Source: a virus. Taken from it: a stretch of DNA of 64,000 nt. Location of the stretch: the IMG/VR virus record IMGVR_UViG_3300032229_000533, positions 96,001-160,000 of that record. One strand, written 5' to 3'. Below are positions 13,516 to 61,698 of the stretch, one piece after another. The notes under the pieces were generated by a model, which saw only the letters and a program-made list of their open reading frames with translations, made no database searches and was not told the DNA's origin. Numbering within the stretch: the stretch's first letter is position 1; every line of letters begins with the position of its first letter. The translations under genes were made by a program, and so were the position numbers.

Positions 13516-13850
13516 TGAAGAAAAATAATTCATTTAAGACGACATTCTACTTGGGGTTAACTATATTACTAATTATTGGGTCAGTAGTATCCTTAATTGT
13601 AGTTAACGTATTTAATGTTTTAACCACTAAATTTGCTAAGGATAAAGATAAAGTTGAAATTTATATTGATAATGTTACACCTGAAAAAGAAATTATTCAC
13701 GATACAGTATATATTGACAAACCTACTGTTAAAATTAATAACACTCTTAAGGATGTTACCACTGTAACTCCAAAAAGTTTACCTGTAACACAAAGTGAAA
13801 AGGATACCGATAATGTAACTAAATCAATAATTACGGATACGATTAAATAG
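13515..13850 (+). CDS. single-pass membrane protein
   Basis: Hydrophobic segment FYLGLTILLIIGSVVSLIVVNVF; DTV/DTI motifs. Confidence 0.55.
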   Translation: MKKNNSFKTTFYLGLTILLIIGSVVSLIVVNVFNVLTTKFAKDKDKVEIYIDNVTPEKEIIHDTVYIDKPTVKINNTLKDVTTVTPKSLPVTQSEKDTDNVTKSIITDTIK

Positions 13851-14535
13851 AATTTTTGTATTCGTTAAGTATTGTTGTAATTGTATCTCTTAACGATTCA
13901 TTTTTAGGTTTGTATGATACCATAGTTGGCTTGTTACCTTTACCAACTTTAGGGTCTTTTTTCTCTTCTCTTCTTTTTTGAGAACATGCTGATTTTTTTT
14001 GAGCATCTGTCATTTTGGATGCAACACCTGCGGCTCTACATTTAGGATAACCTTTAGAATCTGCTTCAGGTCTACCACACGGTGGATGACCACCACCTTC
14101 TTTTTTTCTACATATATTAACCCAAGGACCTTTTGGTTGTTTTGAACCTTTTGGTTTTTTCTTTGTTCCAAACCAAACTGCCAAATCTTCTTTTAATGGA
14201 CCTACAGCTTGTTGTATAATTTTTTCGGGGTCTTCAACATCACCAAGAACACTACCTTCATCATCATTTTGCCCTGTATAAAAACTTTTCAAATAAGCAT
14301 CTACCTGAGATATTCTATCAGTTCTTCTTTCAATACGGGCTCTTTCTTCAGGAGTTTCTTTAAAATCACCGTCAGCTTCTTCATAGGCTAACTCAGCGTT
14401 ATCATAATTATAAACATCAATAGTGAAAGGGGCAACTTGTTTGTCAGTCCAAGGTTGTGGTGAAAGCACAATTGGAACTTTGAAATGTCCTGCATTTCCT
14501 GAACCAGTTGCTTCACTTATTCTATTTTTTTTCAT
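13843..14535 (-). CDS. hypothetical late protein with basic Cys-containing domain
   Basis: ORF; WVNICR...PCGR...YPKCR motif; upstream TATTTATA. Confidence 0.6.
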   Translation of the reverse strand: MKKNRISEATGSGNAGHFKVPIVLSPQPWTDKQVAPFTIDVYNYDNAELAYEEADGDFKETPEERARIERRTDRISQVDAYLKSFYTGQNDDEGSVLGDVEDPEKIIQQAVGPLKEDLAVWFGTKKKPKGSKQPKGPWVNICRKKEGGGHPPCGRPEADSKGYPKCRAAGVASKMTDAQKKSACSQKRREEKKDPKVGKGNKPTMVSYKPKNESLRDTITTILNEYKNSI

Positions 14536-20854: not shown

Positions 20855-21043
20855 ATGCTAATAGTAGAAGTAAAAAAAGACGGAATAGAAAAAGCCTTGA
20901 AAACTTTAAAGTCTAAAGTTATCAAGACTAAGCAAAATCAAATTCTATTTGAAAAAAAAGAATTTGTTAAAAAATCAGTTGTAAGACGAGCTCAGGTGTT
21001 GAAAGCGTCGTATGTGCAAAAAGTAAAAAATTCTTTAAATTGA
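20855..21043 (+). CDS. rpsU: ribosomal protein bS21 homologue
   Basis: MLIVEVK..IEKALKTLK..EFVKKSVVRRAQVLKASYVQ aligns by eye with Bacteroidetes bS21; basic 62-aa protein. Confidence 0.85.
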   Translation: MLIVEVKKDGIEKALKTLKSKVIKTKQNQILFEKKEFVKKSVVRRAQVLKASYVQKVKNSLN

Positions 21044-21733
21044 TTCTTCTAAGTTTTTTAACTTAAGGAAATTCAATTGGTCAAACTTTTCAGTTTTCAA
21101 CCTATCTATGGTTTCAGACAATTTTGTCTTTAACTCAAATTCCTCTTCTTTTTCTAAGATGACATTAAGTTTACTAATCGCACTTTCACGAATAGTTTCA
21201 AACTTGTCTTCAAGAGATTTTGAATCTTCAGAAATTAATTGAAGGAATTCTTTTTTAGATGATTCATCAAGATTTTCAACATATTTGTTCAAAGTTTGGT
21301 TTGCAATACTAACCATTGATTTCAATGGGATATTGATAGATTCTTTAACAATATTATTTGTTGAAGTTAACACACTTGTAATATTTTTTTTGGAATTAAC
21401 CCTTTCTAACAAATTTAATTTATTTGTATAAACAAGGGCGTCAATATCGGAATATCTATTTTGAACATTCTCAGATAAAGTTCTTGGTAATTTAATACTT
21501 GGCAGTAATTGTTGGATTAAACTAATACCTTCTTCTAAGAAGTCTTTAGCATCAGATTCGTTTAGTCCTTGAGGAGTACTCAATTGGTCGTACAAAGAAT
21601 ACAATTTAGACATAGTTTTGTTACTCAAAACATTTTGTTTGAATTCTTTCAACGATTTCTTAAATTCCTTTTCATCTTTGTAGGATTCAAGAAGATTGTT
21701 TTCAATTATGGATTTGATTTTTCCGAAAGTCAT
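21035..21733 (-). CDS. hypothetical head-module protein
   Basis: Helical 232-aa ORF with late promoter motif at 21750-21757. Confidence 0.65.
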   Translation of the reverse strand: MTFGKIKSIIENNLLESYKDEKEFKKSLKEFKQNVLSNKTMSKLYSLYDQLSTPQGLNESDAKDFLEEGISLIQQLLPSIKLPRTLSENVQNRYSDIDALVYTNKLNLLERVNSKKNITSVLTSTNNIVKESINIPLKSMVSIANQTLNKYVENLDESSKKEFLQLISEDSKSLEDKFETIRESAISKLNVILEKEEEFELKTKLSETIDRLKTEKFDQLNFLKLKNLEESI

Positions 21734-37086: not shown

Positions 37087-37468
37087 GGGGGTGCATGGTA
37101 TTGATTGGCATTGTTGGGGATAAGTGGCACGTCGGAGCTGAATTAACTTCGTTATCAACTGGTTTAAACAATCAAATGGCAATACTTTTGCTAAGCTTGC
37201 GGCTTTAGGTCTTACTAAAGAAGAAGCTGTTGTTACTATCTAAGATAGGGAACAACAACGGGGTCGGTGAACATTAACCTAGCAACAGAAGTTCTTACAA
37301 AGGTGGAAAAATGACTAAACCCAAAATTGAGTCGTCCATTGGTTATTAGTTTACGATGGTGAAGAACAAACTGAATATTTTGGAACATTAGAAAATGTTA
37401 TCCTAAACGTGTAGTCATTTATTGTCAAAATGAGCAAGACGAGGGTTCGAATCCCTCCACCTCCACCA
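37087..37468 (+). ncRNA. ssrA: tmRNA
   Basis: GGGGGTG/CACCTCC acceptor stem with G3.U wobble, GAGGG-TTCGAAT-CCCTC T-arm, ACCA end, 382 nt, internal tag ORF 37178-37243. Confidence 0.93.
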
Positions 37469-44233: not shown

Positions 44234-44704
44234 TTATTTTAAGAATCTCAATTTATAAATAGTACTGTAAATTAATTCTTGAACAGTATCAATTTGATTT
44301 TGAATAAAAGACTCTTTAACTGACTTTCTATTTTTTTCAATATTTTCATCTAACCCTTTAAAGTAAGTTATTAGTTGCTCTGTTGATTTATAATCAACCA
44401 TTTTAATTGTTTTATATCCTGTTAACAAATCGTTTTTACCTTGGTAGCTCTCAACAATTCCGTCAATTAGTTCAACAATCCCATCGTAATACGTACCTAA
44501 TGCAGTATGTTCAGCAAATGATGATTGTGATTTTGTTTGCCAATGAAATACATGTGCCTGACTTCTTGAATGAAGTAATGTTGAAATCATATCAACAATA
44601 TCCCCATCCTCAGCAATATCATCAGCAGTTTCTTTTTTTTCGGCTTCACTCAACTGTATTACTTTATACAATTGTTCTTTTGTCAATGTTACTCTTTTTT
44701 CCAT
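44234..44704 (-). CDS. ferritin-like DUF5856-type protein
   Basis: QAHVFHWQT..SFAEHTALG.YYD..D.IVESYQG; true start at 44704 (track extension overlaps a tRNA). Confidence 0.65.
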   Translation of the reverse strand: MEKRVTLTKEQLYKVIQLSEAEKKETADDIAEDGDIVDMISTLLHSRSQAHVFHWQTKSQSSFAEHTALGTYYDGIVELIDGIVESYQGKNDLLTGYKTIKMVDYKSTEQLITYFKGLDENIEKNRKSVKESFIQNQIDTVQELIYSTIYKLRFLK

Positions 44705-44742
44705 ACATATAAATACCTTGCCATTTGGAAAAAAATTATTTG

Positions 44743-44814
44743 TACCGATGGGAAGAATTGAACTTCCGACAACTTGGATATGAATCAAGTGCTCTACCAC
44801 TGAACTACATCGGC
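44743..44814 (-). tRNA. tRNA-Met(CAT), probably elongator
   Basis: Loop TTCATAT; paired G1.U72 (not initiator-like); Met versus Ile2 is inferred. Confidence 0.8.
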
Positions 44815-44819
44815 ATTAG

Positions 44820-44894
44820 TGGTTTCATAGGGACTCGAACCCCAACGTCTTTTCGTCCGTAGCGAAATGTTTTATCCAATTAAACTATAAAACC
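44820..44894 (-). tRNA. tRNA-Arg(ACG)
   Basis: TTTCG-CTACGGA-CGAAA anticodon arm. Confidence 0.85.
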
Positions 44895-45557
44895 ATTGTT
44901 GTATTTTTGATAATATTTAACCCATTTTCTAATTGCATTATCACTAACATTATATTTTTTACCTGTCCCAACGTAACCAAACTTTTCAATCTCATCTATC
45001 AAATTGTTGTAGTCAGGTCTTTCTGTTTTTCGTCTATCTTTATAATATTCTTCTTTCTCCTTAGTAAAAATTTTTCTCATATCTTCTTTATATGTTTTAC
45101 TTTTTGTGTTTTTACCACAGTGAGTTGGTAGAGTTGCATTACAGTTTGGACAAACTATTCTTAAATTCTCAATCCTATTATCATTCCAAACCCCATTGAT
45201 ATGGTCAATAATTAACGACATCTTTTTTCCCATCCATTCCTCACCTTGACCACATAATTCGCAATTTCTTTTTTTGATACCTGTTTCATATAACCTTTCC
45301 TTCAATCGGCTCCTATTATATGAGGACCCTTCAGTTAGAATATCATCTAATTGAATGGTTTTTTCTTTGGTTGATTGATTTAATTTTTCAATTCTAACTT
45401 CGTCAGGATTAAAGTGGTCTACATTTATATTATATTTTTTCAAATATTTTTTTAAGGTATTAAAATTACCTCCTGCAGCTCTTAACCCAAGTTTATGTAA
45501 ACACTCTGTTTGTGTTTTAGAATTTTTAACAATTTCATCTAATTTAATTTTATCCAT
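44880..45557 (-). CDS. HNH endonuclease (free-standing, homing-like)
   Basis: CELCG..IDHING..NDNRIENLRIVCPNCNA; own late promoter motif; stop codon lies inside tRNA-Arg. Confidence 0.85.
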   Translation of the reverse strand: MDKIKLDEIVKNSKTQTECLHKLGLRAAGGNFNTLKKYLKKYNINVDHFNPDEVRIEKLNQSTKEKTIQLDDILTEGSSYNRSRLKERLYETGIKKRNCELCGQGEEWMGKKMSLIIDHINGVWNDNRIENLRIVCPNCNATLPTHCGKNTKSKTYKEDMRKIFTKEKEEYYKDRRKTERPDYNNLIDEIEKFGYVGTGKKYNVSDNAIRKWVKYYQKYNNGFIV

Positions 45558-46813: not shown

Positions 46814-46913
46814 TAGTCAGGACAGGATTCGAACCTGTAATGGTATTATACATTCCCATTTCCCCTATGATTGGGAGTGCCAATGGTTTATAAGCCAATT
46901 CCACCACCTGACT
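46814..46913 (-). tRNA. aberrant type-II tRNA-like RNA 1 (no assignable anticodon)
   Basis: Perfect AGTCAGG/CCTGACT acceptor, A73, canonical T-arm ACAGG-TTCGAAT-CCTGT; 22-nt D-loop and 13-nt anticodon-position loop. Confidence 0.7.
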
Positions 46914-48262: not shown

Positions 48263-48274
48263 ATGTCAAAGACC
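48263..48274 (-). promoter_or_regulatory. boxA-like antitermination element
   Basis: GGTCTTTGACAT, near-identical to the copy at 51610-51621; resembles rRNA-operon boxA. Confidence 0.6.
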
Positions 48275-48294: not shown

Positions 48295-48302
48295 CAAAGG
48301 TA
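48295..48302 (-). promoter_or_regulatory. Bacteroidetes-type -7 promoter element (TACCTTTG)
   Basis: Matches TAnnTTTG upstream of a tRNA sub-operon. Confidence 0.65.
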
Positions 48303-48334: not shown

Positions 48335-48371
48335 AAAAAACCCCAAACTTTTTTTCAAAGTTCGGGGTTTT
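48335..48371 (-). terminator. intrinsic terminator (attenuator 1)
   Basis: CCCCGAACTT/AAGTTTGGGG stem followed by TTTTTTGTTTTT. Confidence 0.85.
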
Positions 48372-48422
48372 AATATCTTGTTATTTCTAACTTGTTATTA
48401 ACGTACTACCTTATATCCGAAC

Positions 48423-48506
48423 TCAATTTTGCATATGACGATACCAGCTACAGAATACCTCTTGTTGCTTAATAACCGACGACATATGTTTAATTGATGT
48501 TCTCAT
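48423..48506 (-). CDS. 27-aa putative leader peptide 1
   Basis: MRTSIKHMSSVIKQQEVFCSWYRHMQN*; stop codon overlaps candidate antiterminator strand GAGTTCGG (48417-48424). Confidence 0.6.
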   Translation of the reverse strand: MRTSIKHMSSVIKQQEVFCSWYRHMQN

Positions 48507-48569
48507 TGTTTTATAATTATTACAATAATACGAAAAGTTTCGTATTTGTCAAATATTTTTTTGTTTTAG

Positions 48570-49692: not shown

Positions 49693-50040
49693 TCAATCTT
49701 CTATTTTAAGTGTCCTCAACATCCATTGAGGTCGTTTATTTTCTAAAATATTGTTCATCCATTCTTTTGCTGATGGTAAATAATTGTTACAATCTTCTTT
49801 TACGTGTTGTTCTCCAACATAACGAGTGTAAACTATTTTTCCATCACTATTAATGAATTCTGGTCCAAACCTTTTTTCCATTTCAAAAATCCCTTCGCTA
49901 TGATGTCTGAACATTCTATGTAAAGAATCTCCCATCCAACCTTTGGTTTCATCTAACCATTCGTGTAAATGAATATAATCTTCAGGTTTACCACCAAACT
50001 TTTTTGCGGAACTTTTTGCATGTATATTAGGATGTGCCAT
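49693..50040 (-). CDS. conserved phage protein (DUF6915-like)
   Basis: MAHP..HAKSSAKKFGG..DY..H.W.D..HRMFRHHSEG..GEQHVKED. Confidence 0.7.
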   Translation of the reverse strand: MAHPNIHAKSSAKKFGGKPEDYIHLHEWLDETKGWMGDSLHRMFRHHSEGIFEMEKRFGPEFINSDGKIVYTRYVGEQHVKEDCNNYLPSAKEWMNNILENKRPQWMLRTLKIED

Positions 50041-50784: not shown

Positions 50785-50857
50785 AGCGGTAGACAGGTCT
50801 CGAACCTGCGACTTCGTACTTGGAAGGAACGCGCTCTACCAACTGAGCTACTACCGC
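50785..50857 (-). tRNA. tRNA-Gly(TCC)
   Basis: Loop CTTCCAA, U73. Confidence 0.9.
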
Positions 50858-51387
50858 ATTATTAAATTGTCATGTATTTCAAAATGACAATTTGAACAAA
50901 CTAACATACACTTATCAACTTCATTTTTTAAGTTTTCAAAACTAAGACTTTTTCCTGATATCTGAAAATCTTTTTCTTTTGGGGTTTTATGATGAAATTG
51001 TAATGCTCTATCACATTTATTATACCCACATATTTCACATTTTCCACCCTTATATTCTATCAATTCACGTTTTTTTCTTTTTCTCCACGATATTACATTT
51101 TCTGAATTTGTTTTAGGAATTTTATCTCTTGTAATAACGTATTTTTTAACTGTTTCAAATGCATGTCCCTTAAGTTTTGCAACTTTTTTCAAAGAACCAA
51201 TTTCATCATACAAAACTTGTAACTCTTTCTTTTCCTCGTCACTCAAAGACACATCCTCACCTCCAAGTTTATGTAAGTTACAATGATAAGATACAGTTGA
51301 CATAGCACAATTCAATTCGTTACAAATTTCTTTATACGTTTTACCTGATTTTCTTAATTCTATAATTTTTTCGGAGTATCTACCCAT
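50851..51387 (-). CDS. HTH-HNH endonuclease (homing-like)
   Basis: N-terminal HTH; GGKCEICGY..ALQFHH..VCSNCHFEIH; stop codon lies inside tRNA-Gly. Confidence 0.82.
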   Translation of the reverse strand: MGRYSEKIIELRKSGKTYKEICNELNCAMSTVSYHCNLHKLGGEDVSLSDEEKKELQVLYDEIGSLKKVAKLKGHAFETVKKYVITRDKIPKTNSENVISWRKRKKRELIEYKGGKCEICGYNKCDRALQFHHKTPKEKDFQISGKSLSFENLKNEVDKCMLVCSNCHFEIHDNLIMR

Positions 51388-51609: not shown

Positions 51610-51621
51610 ATGTCAAAGAAC
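51610..51621 (-). promoter_or_regulatory. boxA-like antitermination element
   Basis: GTTCTTTGACAT upstream of the first tRNA of the unit. Confidence 0.65.
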
Positions 51622-60615: not shown

Positions 60616-61698
60616 TTATTGTTCAACCGCTGGTTCAGACGCTGGTGATGTCGGTTCATCTACCGAAGTTTCAATTTCATCTGTAGTATAATCTTCATAA
60701 CCTGTAACGCCAGTTGTTGCAGTACCTGTTGTTGTAGTATCAGTTGTTGTAGTACCAGTTGTTGCAGTACTACCAGTTGTTGCTGATACACCTGAATCAC
60801 CACATACCGCAATAATTGTTTCAGTTGTAATTACTGTCCCGTCTTGACTTCTACTTTCTAAATATTCTTGTGTGATTGGCCCAAAATTACCTGTTTGATA
60901 TCTTGTCGGCATTTTTAAACAAGCTTGAACTTTTCTAATAGTTTCGTTTTTACAATATTGTTTGATTGGTAATGTTTCAGGACATGAAGTGTATTTACCT
61001 CCACCAGTTCCACCACTACCTCCATCAGCATTGGAGTTATCTGCAGGAATATCCGATGGTGCTTCAGCATTGCTATCATGGTAATACCACCATAACGCAA
61101 GTGCACCAATACCAAGTGGAACACCCCATTTTTTAACTCTCGCCCAATTCCATCCTTTTTTAGTTACACCTTCAACTAATTCTTGTTGTTCTTTAGCAGT
61201 AATTTTTGCCAAATCTTTTTGAACTTGAGGTGTTTTTGCTATAGTAGGTTTTAGTTCTTTTGTACTTCCACCAAACAATTTTTTAGTTTTAGCTACGACA
61301 TTTTTAACACCTGTTGAAGCTTTAGCCGCTATTTTTGTTAATACATTTTTTTCTTGTTTTAAAATGTTCAAACCCTCAGCCCTTATCGTTTTTGCAATTT
61401 CAACTCTAAGGGCAGACTTTTCAGGGTTAGTTAATGCTCTGCCTAACTTTCCGTAAATATCTTTATAAAGTTGGGCCATGTTTACTAAGTCACCTTTTTT
61501 AACTGACGCTTCAACCGCCTCATAACCTTGTTTCTTTACCATTTGTTTAATTGAATTACTAACTTGTTGACGGGTAACTTTTGCAAGTTCCGCTCTAGCA
61601 ATACCTTTAATAATATCATCGGGTTGCTCATTAATTGACATCAGTTCAGATATCCTTCTAATTTCTGTTAAGATTTCTTTATTTATATTTGAATTCAT
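60616..61698 (-). CDS. hypothetical protein with TM segment, peptidoglycan-binding-like region and Thr-rich tail
   Basis: WGVPLGIGALALWWYY; IRKVQACL..TGNFGPIT; TTGT repeats. Confidence 0.55.
   Translation of the reverse strand: MNSNINKEILTEIRRISELMSINEQPDDIIKGIARAELAKVTRQQVSNSIKQMVKKQGYEAVEASVKKGDLVNMAQLYKDIYGKLGRALTNPEKSALRVEIAKTIRAEGLNILKQEKNVLTKIAAKASTGVKNVVAKTKKLFGGSTKELKPTIAKTPQVQKDLAKITAKEQQELVEGVTKKGWNWARVKKWGVPLGIGALALWWYYHDSNAEAPSDIPADNSNADGGSGGTGGGKYTSCPETLPIKQYCKNETIRKVQACLKMPTRYQTGNFGPITQEYLESRSQDGTVITTETIIAVCGDSGVSATTGSTATTGTTTTDTTTTGTATTGVTGYEDYTTDEIETSVDEPTSPASEPAVEQ

Follow-up and report, generated by a model that had tools for sequence, protein, structure and literature searches.

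Enterobacterial attenuators, including trpL, hisL, leuL, pheL, thrL, and the ilvL leader of ilvGMEDA, control transcription through the position of a ribosome on a leader ORF, which decides between a terminator and an antiterminator. Some of them, such as thrL and the multivalent ilvL, respond to several amino acids rather than a single one. T-box riboswitches need neither an ORF nor a ribosome, as one uncharged tRNA is bound directly by means of a specifier codon. Attenuation of amino-acid operons has been covered by reviews and models (PMC1183508, PMC3082878). Additionally, ribosome stalling on the short ORFs of the ermBL, mef/mel, and bmrCD leaders reportedly remodels the RNA downstream and switches expression on (PMC8274638, PMC4335068, PMC4191407). 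Phage tRNAs have been linked in recent work to the evasion of tRNA-cleaving host defences (PMC10264068, PMC11555353, PMC11464382). Why large phages carry tRNA arrays and how these arrays are expressed remains an open question in the field.

The locus described here, attenuator unit 1, precedes such an array in a phage genome. It is likely to represent a ribosome-mediated (leader-peptide) transcription attenuator whose sensor codons are the codons of the tRNAs in the following array, a reading for which expression data are lacking. Like the enterobacterial attenuators, it combines a short leader ORF with an intrinsic terminator whose 5' arm can alternatively engage in an antiterminator pairing. 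However, the genes under its putative control are tRNAs rather than biosynthetic enzymes, and its sensor consists of about one or two codons for each of 13–15 tRNA species instead of a tandem run of one codon. It further differs in its phage origin and in a Bacteroidota-type context without Shine-Dalgarno sequences, with a boxA following and a second candidate promoter present in most units. Like T-box riboswitches, unit 1 is proposed to read tRNA status and to act as a terminator/antiterminator switch upstream of translation-related genes, but it would read many tRNAs through translation, and an Rfam search gave no T-box match on the unit. In antibiotic-sensing leaders the stall results from a drug together with a specific nascent peptide, whereas the signal proposed for unit 1, a physiological inference, is the availability of cognate tRNAs; no arrest motif is evident in its leader. 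A full-text literature search found no description of leader-peptide attenuation of tRNA genes, the nearest known systems being the attenuators of amino-acid operons, above all the multivalent ilv and thr leaders. The form is new in that the leader codons match tRNA genes and not biosynthetic genes.

The window, meaning the whole stretch of 64,000 nucleotides under analysis, comprises bases 96001–160000 of a 182-kb IMG/VR virus record and has a GC content of about 32%. As the record reaches 182 kb with only 61% completeness by the CheckV estimate, it is assigned to a jumbo phage. The phage genes are devoid of Shine-Dalgarno sequences, and TAnnTTTG or TATTTAT boxes stand ahead of many of them. 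The lack of Shine-Dalgarno sequences and the TAnnTTTG boxes point to a putative host of Bacteroidota type, which fits the AU-rich start context of the leader ORF. A TATTTAT(A) box recurs 10–25 nt before the starts of many ORFs, for example 13843–14535, 21035–21733, 44880–45557, and 60616–61698, and is also present before the leader of a sister unit. Being distinct from the host-type TAnnTTTG, it probably marks a phage-specific (middle or late) promoter class.

On the minus strand between 43.6 and 54.6 kb, 24 tRNAs are reported by ARAGORN and two more by Rfam alone, one of the latter being a tRNA-Trp whose anticodon CCA was read from the sequence. The only three terminator-like sites of this strand between 43 and 55.5 kb (51688–51656, 48371–48337, and 44208–44180) split these tRNAs into array A, array B, and a short tail. 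Array A lies behind terminator 51688–51656 and holds Pro, Asn, Gly, Asp, Thr, Ala, Leu, Arg(UCU), and Leu. Array B (48249–44180, minus strand) begins with Val, Glu, Phe, His, Ser(UGA), Ile(GAU), and Lys and continues with Cys, Trp, Tyr, Gln, Arg(ACG), and Met up to terminator 44208–44180, all called by ARAGORN or Rfam. Beyond this terminator lies the tail of Ile(UAU) and Ser(GCU). Two relatives, L008 and L010, carry these 15 tRNAs without a break, the tail being joined to array B. The original prediction placed Val, Glu, module A, Phe, module B, and RNA 2 under the control of unit 1; the putatively controlled unit extends well beyond Phe, to terminator 44208–44180.

HNH and DUF genes are inserted within array B of the window. 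Altogether, two HNH homing-endonuclease genes (44880–45557 and 50851–51387) and a DUF5856 gene (44234–44800), all on the minus strand, lie inside the tRNA arrays; the DUF5856 gene carries the PHROG label 'starvation-inducible regulator', and L008 and L010 are free of these insertions. A full-length tmRNA gene occurs near the arrays (37087–37468, plus strand; Rfam 90.5 bits). Additionally, a tRNA-like element of 100 nt (46814–46913, minus strand) has a clear acceptor stem and T arm around a long internal insertion. It is barely above the Rfam tRNA threshold (30.5 bits), was missed by ARAGORN, and could be an intron-containing or degenerate tRNA. Adjoining tRNA-Ala is a DUF6915 protein (49693–50040, minus strand) with its nearest cultured relatives (at most 57% identity) in large Bacillus (Tsamsa-like) phages and remoter ones (about 42%) in Streptomyces phages, which hints at a link to tRNA biology. 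The spacers between the tRNAs give fold z-scores of only -0.8 to -1.3 and lend no support to further structured RNAs.

Unit 1 itself is laid out on the minus strand as follows. The candidate leader promoter (48553–48523) comprises a TTTG/TTGACA box at 48553–48547 and, 16–19 nt downstream, a TATTATTG box at 48530–48523. It is the best sigma-70-like match of the region (11/12) and deviates at one position from TTTG-N19-TAnnTTTG, the pattern of Bacteroidota promoters. All homologues keep TTTGACA as well as the spacing, and the equivalent units in other phage records carry canonical TAnnTTTG boxes 18–37 nt upstream of the leader ATG; promoter activity is inferred from these motifs. The leader ORF (48506–48423) runs from ATG to TGA over 27 codons, and its translation is identical to the peptide of 27 residues originally proposed. 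Its start context is AU-rich, as in the other genes of the phage, and its translation is an inference without ribosome data. The antiterminator strand, region 2 (GAGTTCGG, 48424–48417), overlaps the TGA at 48425–48423 in the window, as had been predicted.

A long and irregular hairpin, P1 (regions 1:2, 48502–48419), spans the ORF, and at its base GAAC (48502–48499) pairs with GUUC (48422–48419). The single-sequence fold of the P1 region, terminator included, has a z-score of -5.0. P1 also appears when 28 sequences are folded jointly by RNAalifold, where one compensatory pair (U-A to C-G) and several changes compatible with wobble pairing are seen. Support for this predicted hairpin is moderate. 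The linker between regions 2 and 3 (48416–48372) contains a conserved GGU and an A-rich 22-mer; the GGU (48410–48408) is predicted to pair with ACC (48368–48366). The near-invariant 22-mer (48399–48378), located between the antiterminator strand and the terminator, consists of two AAUAAC repeats around a GUUA-GAAA-UAAC mini-hairpin (48391–48380) that is present in the consensus fold. Pausing, protein binding, or structural spacing might be its role. The intrinsic terminator (regions 3:4, 48371–48327) consists of a 15-bp stem (48371–48337) with a loop of 5 nt, and its T-rich tail reaches about 48327. The 5' arm includes the core of region 3, CCGAACU (48365–48359). This stem is the top terminator-like site of the scan and is kept in all homologues. 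It lies 52 nt past the stop codon and 87 nt ahead of tRNA-Val, and it is the first terminator after the upstream Leu-Arg-Leu tRNAs. Against Rfam, unit 1 reaches the threshold of no family; the weak matches to NsiR1, PyrG leader, and BTnc060 are driven by the terminator.

The feature judged decisive for unit 1, on the predicted reading frame, is the codon content of its leader. Codons 4–26 are without exception read by tRNAs of the array behind the leader, from Val to Ser(GCU), and 14 of the 15 anticodons of that array are sampled. The wobble rule as scored gave 15/15 by letting Ile(UAU) read AUG and was discounted to 14/15; AUA, the codon that Ile(UAU) reads, is present in the leaders of several relatives. 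At the amino-acid level, 24 of the 26 residues belong to the set of the array and all 13 of its amino acids are covered, with a joint P of 8e-7 computed against the amino-acid frequencies of the phage itself. With respect to this match, leader 1 ranks first among 176 small ORFs in the window. The choice of synonymous codons agrees as well. For instance, the Arg codon is CGU, matching the Arg(ACG) of the array, whereas the sister leader uses AGA and has its own Arg(UCU). The Ser codons UCA, UCG, and AGC match both Ser tRNAs, AGC corresponding to Ser(GCU). Leu, Pro, Gly, Asp, and Ala, whose tRNAs sit in the upstream array A, are absent from leader 1. Off-array codons cluster at codons 2–3 and at or after region 2. 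The mixed composition of the leader had been taken as a sign of general amino-acid sensing, an idea that does not hold, as the tRNA species sampled are those of the array that the leader precedes, and the ones belonging to the sister array are avoided.

In the antiterminator pairing, GAGTTCGG (48424–48417) is complementary to CCGAACTT (48365–48358) in the 5' arm of the terminator, 51 nt downstream. The 8-bp pairing over about 50 nt expected at the outset is thus present, with seven Watson-Crick pairs (AGUUCGG/CCGAACU) plus one G-U. Taken alone it is not significant. A 7-bp complement to the arm within about 150 nt upstream arises in 8–12% of dinucleotide shuffles, which places the unit 1 pairing taken alone within chance (P about 0.1). 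Therefore, the case must rest on comparative evidence. AGTTCGG and CCCCGAAC are invariant in 28 distinct homologues, except for one A-to-G change that still permits a G-U pair. Since AGTTCGG stays invariant both where it is translated and where it follows the stop codon, the constraint acts at the RNA level. Covariation of the 2:3 helix is uninformative within this family because both strands are invariant.

Comparison across units is more telling, as all eight of them show the complementarity with arms of eight different sequences (Fisher combined P 4e-6). The pairs include AGUUCGG/CCGAACU, AUGUUCAG/CUGAACAU, GUGUUCAG/CUGAACAC, UGUUCGG/CCGAACA, GGAGAAG/CUUCUCC, UCCGAG/CUCGGA, and UUGUUCCGA/UCGGAACAA. 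In every unit the complementary segment, 5–9 nt long, lies upstream of the terminator, in most of them near the ORF end; in 5/8 units region 2 falls within the last 5–13 codons of the ORF. The eight units are related and hence not fully independent, and strict complementarity is weak in G003_a, G003_b, and G002_b (5–7 bp, P 0.05–0.6). In unit 2, the sister unit, an 8-bp pairing joins the ORF end to the arm and shows a compensatory A-U to G-C change between clades. Taken together, conservation and covariation put the pairing beyond chance. Furthermore, when truncated transcripts ending before the 3' arm of the terminator are folded, the 2:3 pairing is part of the minimum-energy structure in all states except with a ribosome footprint on region 2, and the GGU:ACC helper pairs appear in these computed folds.

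Protein-anchored and pattern searches of viral and metagenome contigs yielded 28 distinct homologues of unit 1. All of them are followed by tRNA-Val, and their upstream context is variable. The leader ORF is open in 28/28, with 27, 33, or 35 codons. Two indels fall within the shared coding part, both of 3 nt; those outside the ORF measure 1, 2, or 5 nt. In most relatives the TGA is missing because of a 1-nt indel where the ORF ends, and the stop lies 18–24 nt farther downstream. The stop codon overlapping the antiterminator strand, central to the original prediction, therefore holds for the clade of the window but not elsewhere; judged from the alignment, the conserved feature is the placement of region 2 inside the last ORF codons, not the overlap with the stop. 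In the centre of the ORF not even third codon positions vary, which suggests that the RNA is constrained too; this invariance is partly forced by the search patterns used. The family includes 15 peptide variants, among which residues are swapped between clades (I/M, K/V, I/F, H/Y, M/V, and Q/E), and each variant keeps the 13/13 amino-acid coverage. As the sequence changes and the coverage stays, selection looks to be on leader composition rather than on a folded peptide, as far as alignments can tell.

A DNA pattern joining regions 2 and 3 was not strict enough, most of its matches being due to chance, and L011, L014, L017, L018, L140, L143, and L145 were dropped after alignment as chance pattern matches. 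A contig binned into a 'Candidatus Shapirobacteria' MAG (L183:4430–4662) contains the phage junction of post-terminator promoter, boxA, and tRNA-Val and is almost certainly a mis-binned phage contig. No cultured phage with the unit was present in the GenBank phage collection, and thus no ready model phage was found.

The sister unit 2 (51802–51656, minus strand) precedes array A and consists of a 29-codon leader (51802–51713) and the terminator 51688–51656. Its codons 3–22 are all read by its own array A, of which 9/9 anticodons are sampled. Three other phage records (G001–G003) were extended after looking for terminator tails with the box that precedes tRNA-Val behind them, and they gave six further units having different leaders and differently partitioned arrays. 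In each case the leader fits its own array more closely than it fits the sister array of that genome. The residue fractions for own versus swapped arrays are 0.92 and 0.75 versus 0.15 and 0.29 for the window units, 0.81 and 0.74 versus 0.31 and 0.32 for G001, and 0.63 and 0.67 versus 0.34 and 0.29 for G003. Among five further units with complete arrays, anticodon coverage reaches 14/14 (G002_a), 13/13 (G001_a), 11/11 (G003_a), 8/9, and 9/12, which brings the units with a leader-array codon match to seven, unit 1 and the sister unit included. Moreover, the amino acids travel with the tRNA genes. Pro and Asn occur in an array-B-type G002 leader whose array holds those tRNAs. The leader of G001_a has Ala and Asp and that of G001_b has Tyr and Val, each with its tRNA in the array concerned. 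The non-homologous leaders of the other units have the ORF logic in common, and RNA sequence is not shared. The idea of a leader ORF coupled to an antiterminator/terminator switch before tRNAs, put forward in the original prediction, is backed by the in-frame indels, the computed codon-anticodon match, and the pairing covariation across units. Just upstream of the G001_a leader lies a tRNA with the anticodon CUA (amber-reading; labelled 'Pyl' by ARAGORN; L263:11798–11870, minus strand), which suggests possible TAG recoding or suppression in that phage.

Between the terminator of unit 1 and tRNA-Val two more elements are found. The one nearer the terminator, TACCTTTG at 48302–48295 (minus strand), is a Bacteroidota -7 box of the form TAnnTTTG and a candidate internal promoter, P2. 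All homologues keep this motif, the two n positions varying (cc, tc, or ta), and the box is present in 6/8 units (unit 1 and five others) and absent in two. As TAnnTTTG is common in this AT-rich genome (123 matches versus 107 expected), promoter function of P2 is only inferred. Its location between the terminator and tRNA-Val means that control by the attenuator may be partial. A combined -33/-7 promoter made of the two post-terminator TTTG boxes was rejected, as their spacing differs between units (8 nt versus 24–27 nt). A TAnnTTTG -7 box is the better reading of the first of them, and boxA that of the second.

The boxA-type element (TCTTTGACAT..., an 18-mer at 48272–48255, minus strand) ends 5 nt upstream of tRNA-Val, and such an element also precedes tRNA-Pro at 51618–51608. 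The exact 18-mer occurs in 66 genome-contig stretches (67 sites), about half of them from Bacteroidota; 24 sites follow a tRNA 3' end and 13 lie 47–130 nt before the 5' motif of 23S. None of the 67 sites is upstream of 16S, the location being the 16S-23S spacer instead. In Chryseobacterium gleum (L185) it sits between a spacer tRNA and 23S rRNA, the position at which rRNA operons carry the spacer boxA for Nus-factor antitermination. The likeness to the boxA of rRNA operons is twofold, namely identity to a Bacteroidota rRNA spacer element and a place just upstream of untranslated stable-RNA genes. However, the element here lies downstream of an attenuator as a separate module and serves a phage tRNA array. 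By analogy, the 18-mer probably recruits Nus-type antitermination for the untranslated array, its activity and NusB/NusE binding being inferred. The same 18-mer is also found 11 nt upstream of a chromosomal tRNA gene in a Saprospirales MAG (L201:2251–2300), and boxA may be used by host tRNA operons as well.

A working model of unit 1 can be outlined from these elements. Transcription would start at the promoter (about 48553–48523), and the 27-codon leader would be translated while being made. With all array B tRNAs available and charged, the ribosome would quickly arrive at the ORF end and cover region 2 (48424–48417), which would leave region 3 (48365–48359) free, allow the terminator hairpin (48371–48337) to form, and stop transcription. 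If any sampled tRNA were scarce, the ribosome would lag upstream and region 2 would stay free to pair with region 3, aided by GGU:ACC, so that the terminator would be blocked. The polymerase reading through would pick up boxA (48272–48255) and transcribe the array from tRNA-Val on. In this way the phage would regulate its tRNA supply by negative feedback, on top of any output from the candidate internal promoter (48302–48295).

The direction of the switch is inferred. Across units, the stop codon lies 18–52 nt upstream of the terminator arm, and therefore the ribosome would act only through region 2. The negative feedback reading follows from this distance together with the fold preference and the off-array codons at codons 2–3 and at or after region 2, a distribution to be expected if any stall ahead of region 2 leads to readthrough. 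Probably, the phage makes more of the array tRNAs when ribosomes run short of them. The scales tip slightly towards a broader proposal, in which a 'sampler' leader with about one codon per isoacceptor keeps each phage tRNA array under homeostatic feedback. As part of this proposal, depletion of any one isoacceptor, be it through shut-off of the host, through codon demand, or through an anticodon nuclease of the host defence, would stall the ribosome, open the terminator, and lead to resynthesis of the whole array, and the tRNA-supply sensor, possibly a counter-defence circuit, would be of a kind not described for any tRNA genes.

Other explanations of the locus have to be weighed against ribosome-mediated attenuation. 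The terminator 48371–48337 could mark an ordinary operon boundary that ends the Leu-Arg-Leu unit and a small independent gene for a peptide or an RNA, with no regulated readthrough and with array B driven by its own promoter (48302–48295) and boxA. Such an arrangement would suit a strong terminator of 15 bp plus a T run. Moreover, the conserved TAnnTTTG box and the boxA downstream of it could make the array expressible without readthrough, and TATATTTG boxes stand directly before other tRNA clusters of the window, namely Leu(UAA) and Ile(UAU). However, it leaves unexplained why a small ORF is written in the codons of the following array in seven units, and why the ORF end is complementary to whichever terminator arm follows. 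Nor does it account for two units without room for a post-terminator promoter. In these, no gap follows the terminator: the T run of G002_a borders directly on boxA and that of G001_a on tRNA-Ala, and therefore their tRNAs can be made only by readthrough. A plain boundary is accordingly regarded as unlikely.

Attenuation with the reverse polarity would license the array, in that efficient leader translation would promote readthrough and stalling would terminate, the array being made only when translation works. The direction cannot be read from sequence alone, and P1 could be an anti-antiterminator whose opening depends on a translating ribosome. Nevertheless, this variant is given very little credence. 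A terminating ribosome reaches only region 2 and not the terminator hairpin, as the stop lies 18–52 nt upstream; folds with region 2 covered favour the terminator; and the off-array codons cluster at region 2 or beyond it, and a ribosome stalled there would not release region 2. It is harder still to regard the locus as a structured small RNA with a 5' hairpin, an A-rich single-stranded segment, a terminator, and its own promoter, in which the ORF is incidental. The anatomy is typical of trans-acting sRNAs, with a candidate promoter and a terminator in place, the fold z-score is -5, and the hairpin top and the A-rich 22-mer are invariant at the nucleotide level, third codon positions included. 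However, the ORF is open in all 28 homologues with in-frame indels, the codon/anticodon match has a P of about 1e-6, no Rfam family reaches the threshold, and the non-homologous leaders elsewhere share the ORF logic and not the RNA sequence. A trans-acting small RNA would be expected to lack a conserved ORF, whereas unit 1 has one.

Ribosome-mediated attenuation, if true for unit 1, has several implications. The match between leader codons and downstream anticodons is a computational signature that can be used across the tRNA arrays of phages and plasmids. The mechanism would extend classical attenuation from amino-acid biosynthesis to tRNA supply, and its sensor, with a single codon for each isoacceptor in place of tandem runs, would be of a new design. 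Additionally, ribosome-coupled attenuation would gain a further case in systems of Bacteroidota type without Shine-Dalgarno sequences. The mechanism would also provide a concrete and directly testable regulatory mechanism for phage tRNA arrays.
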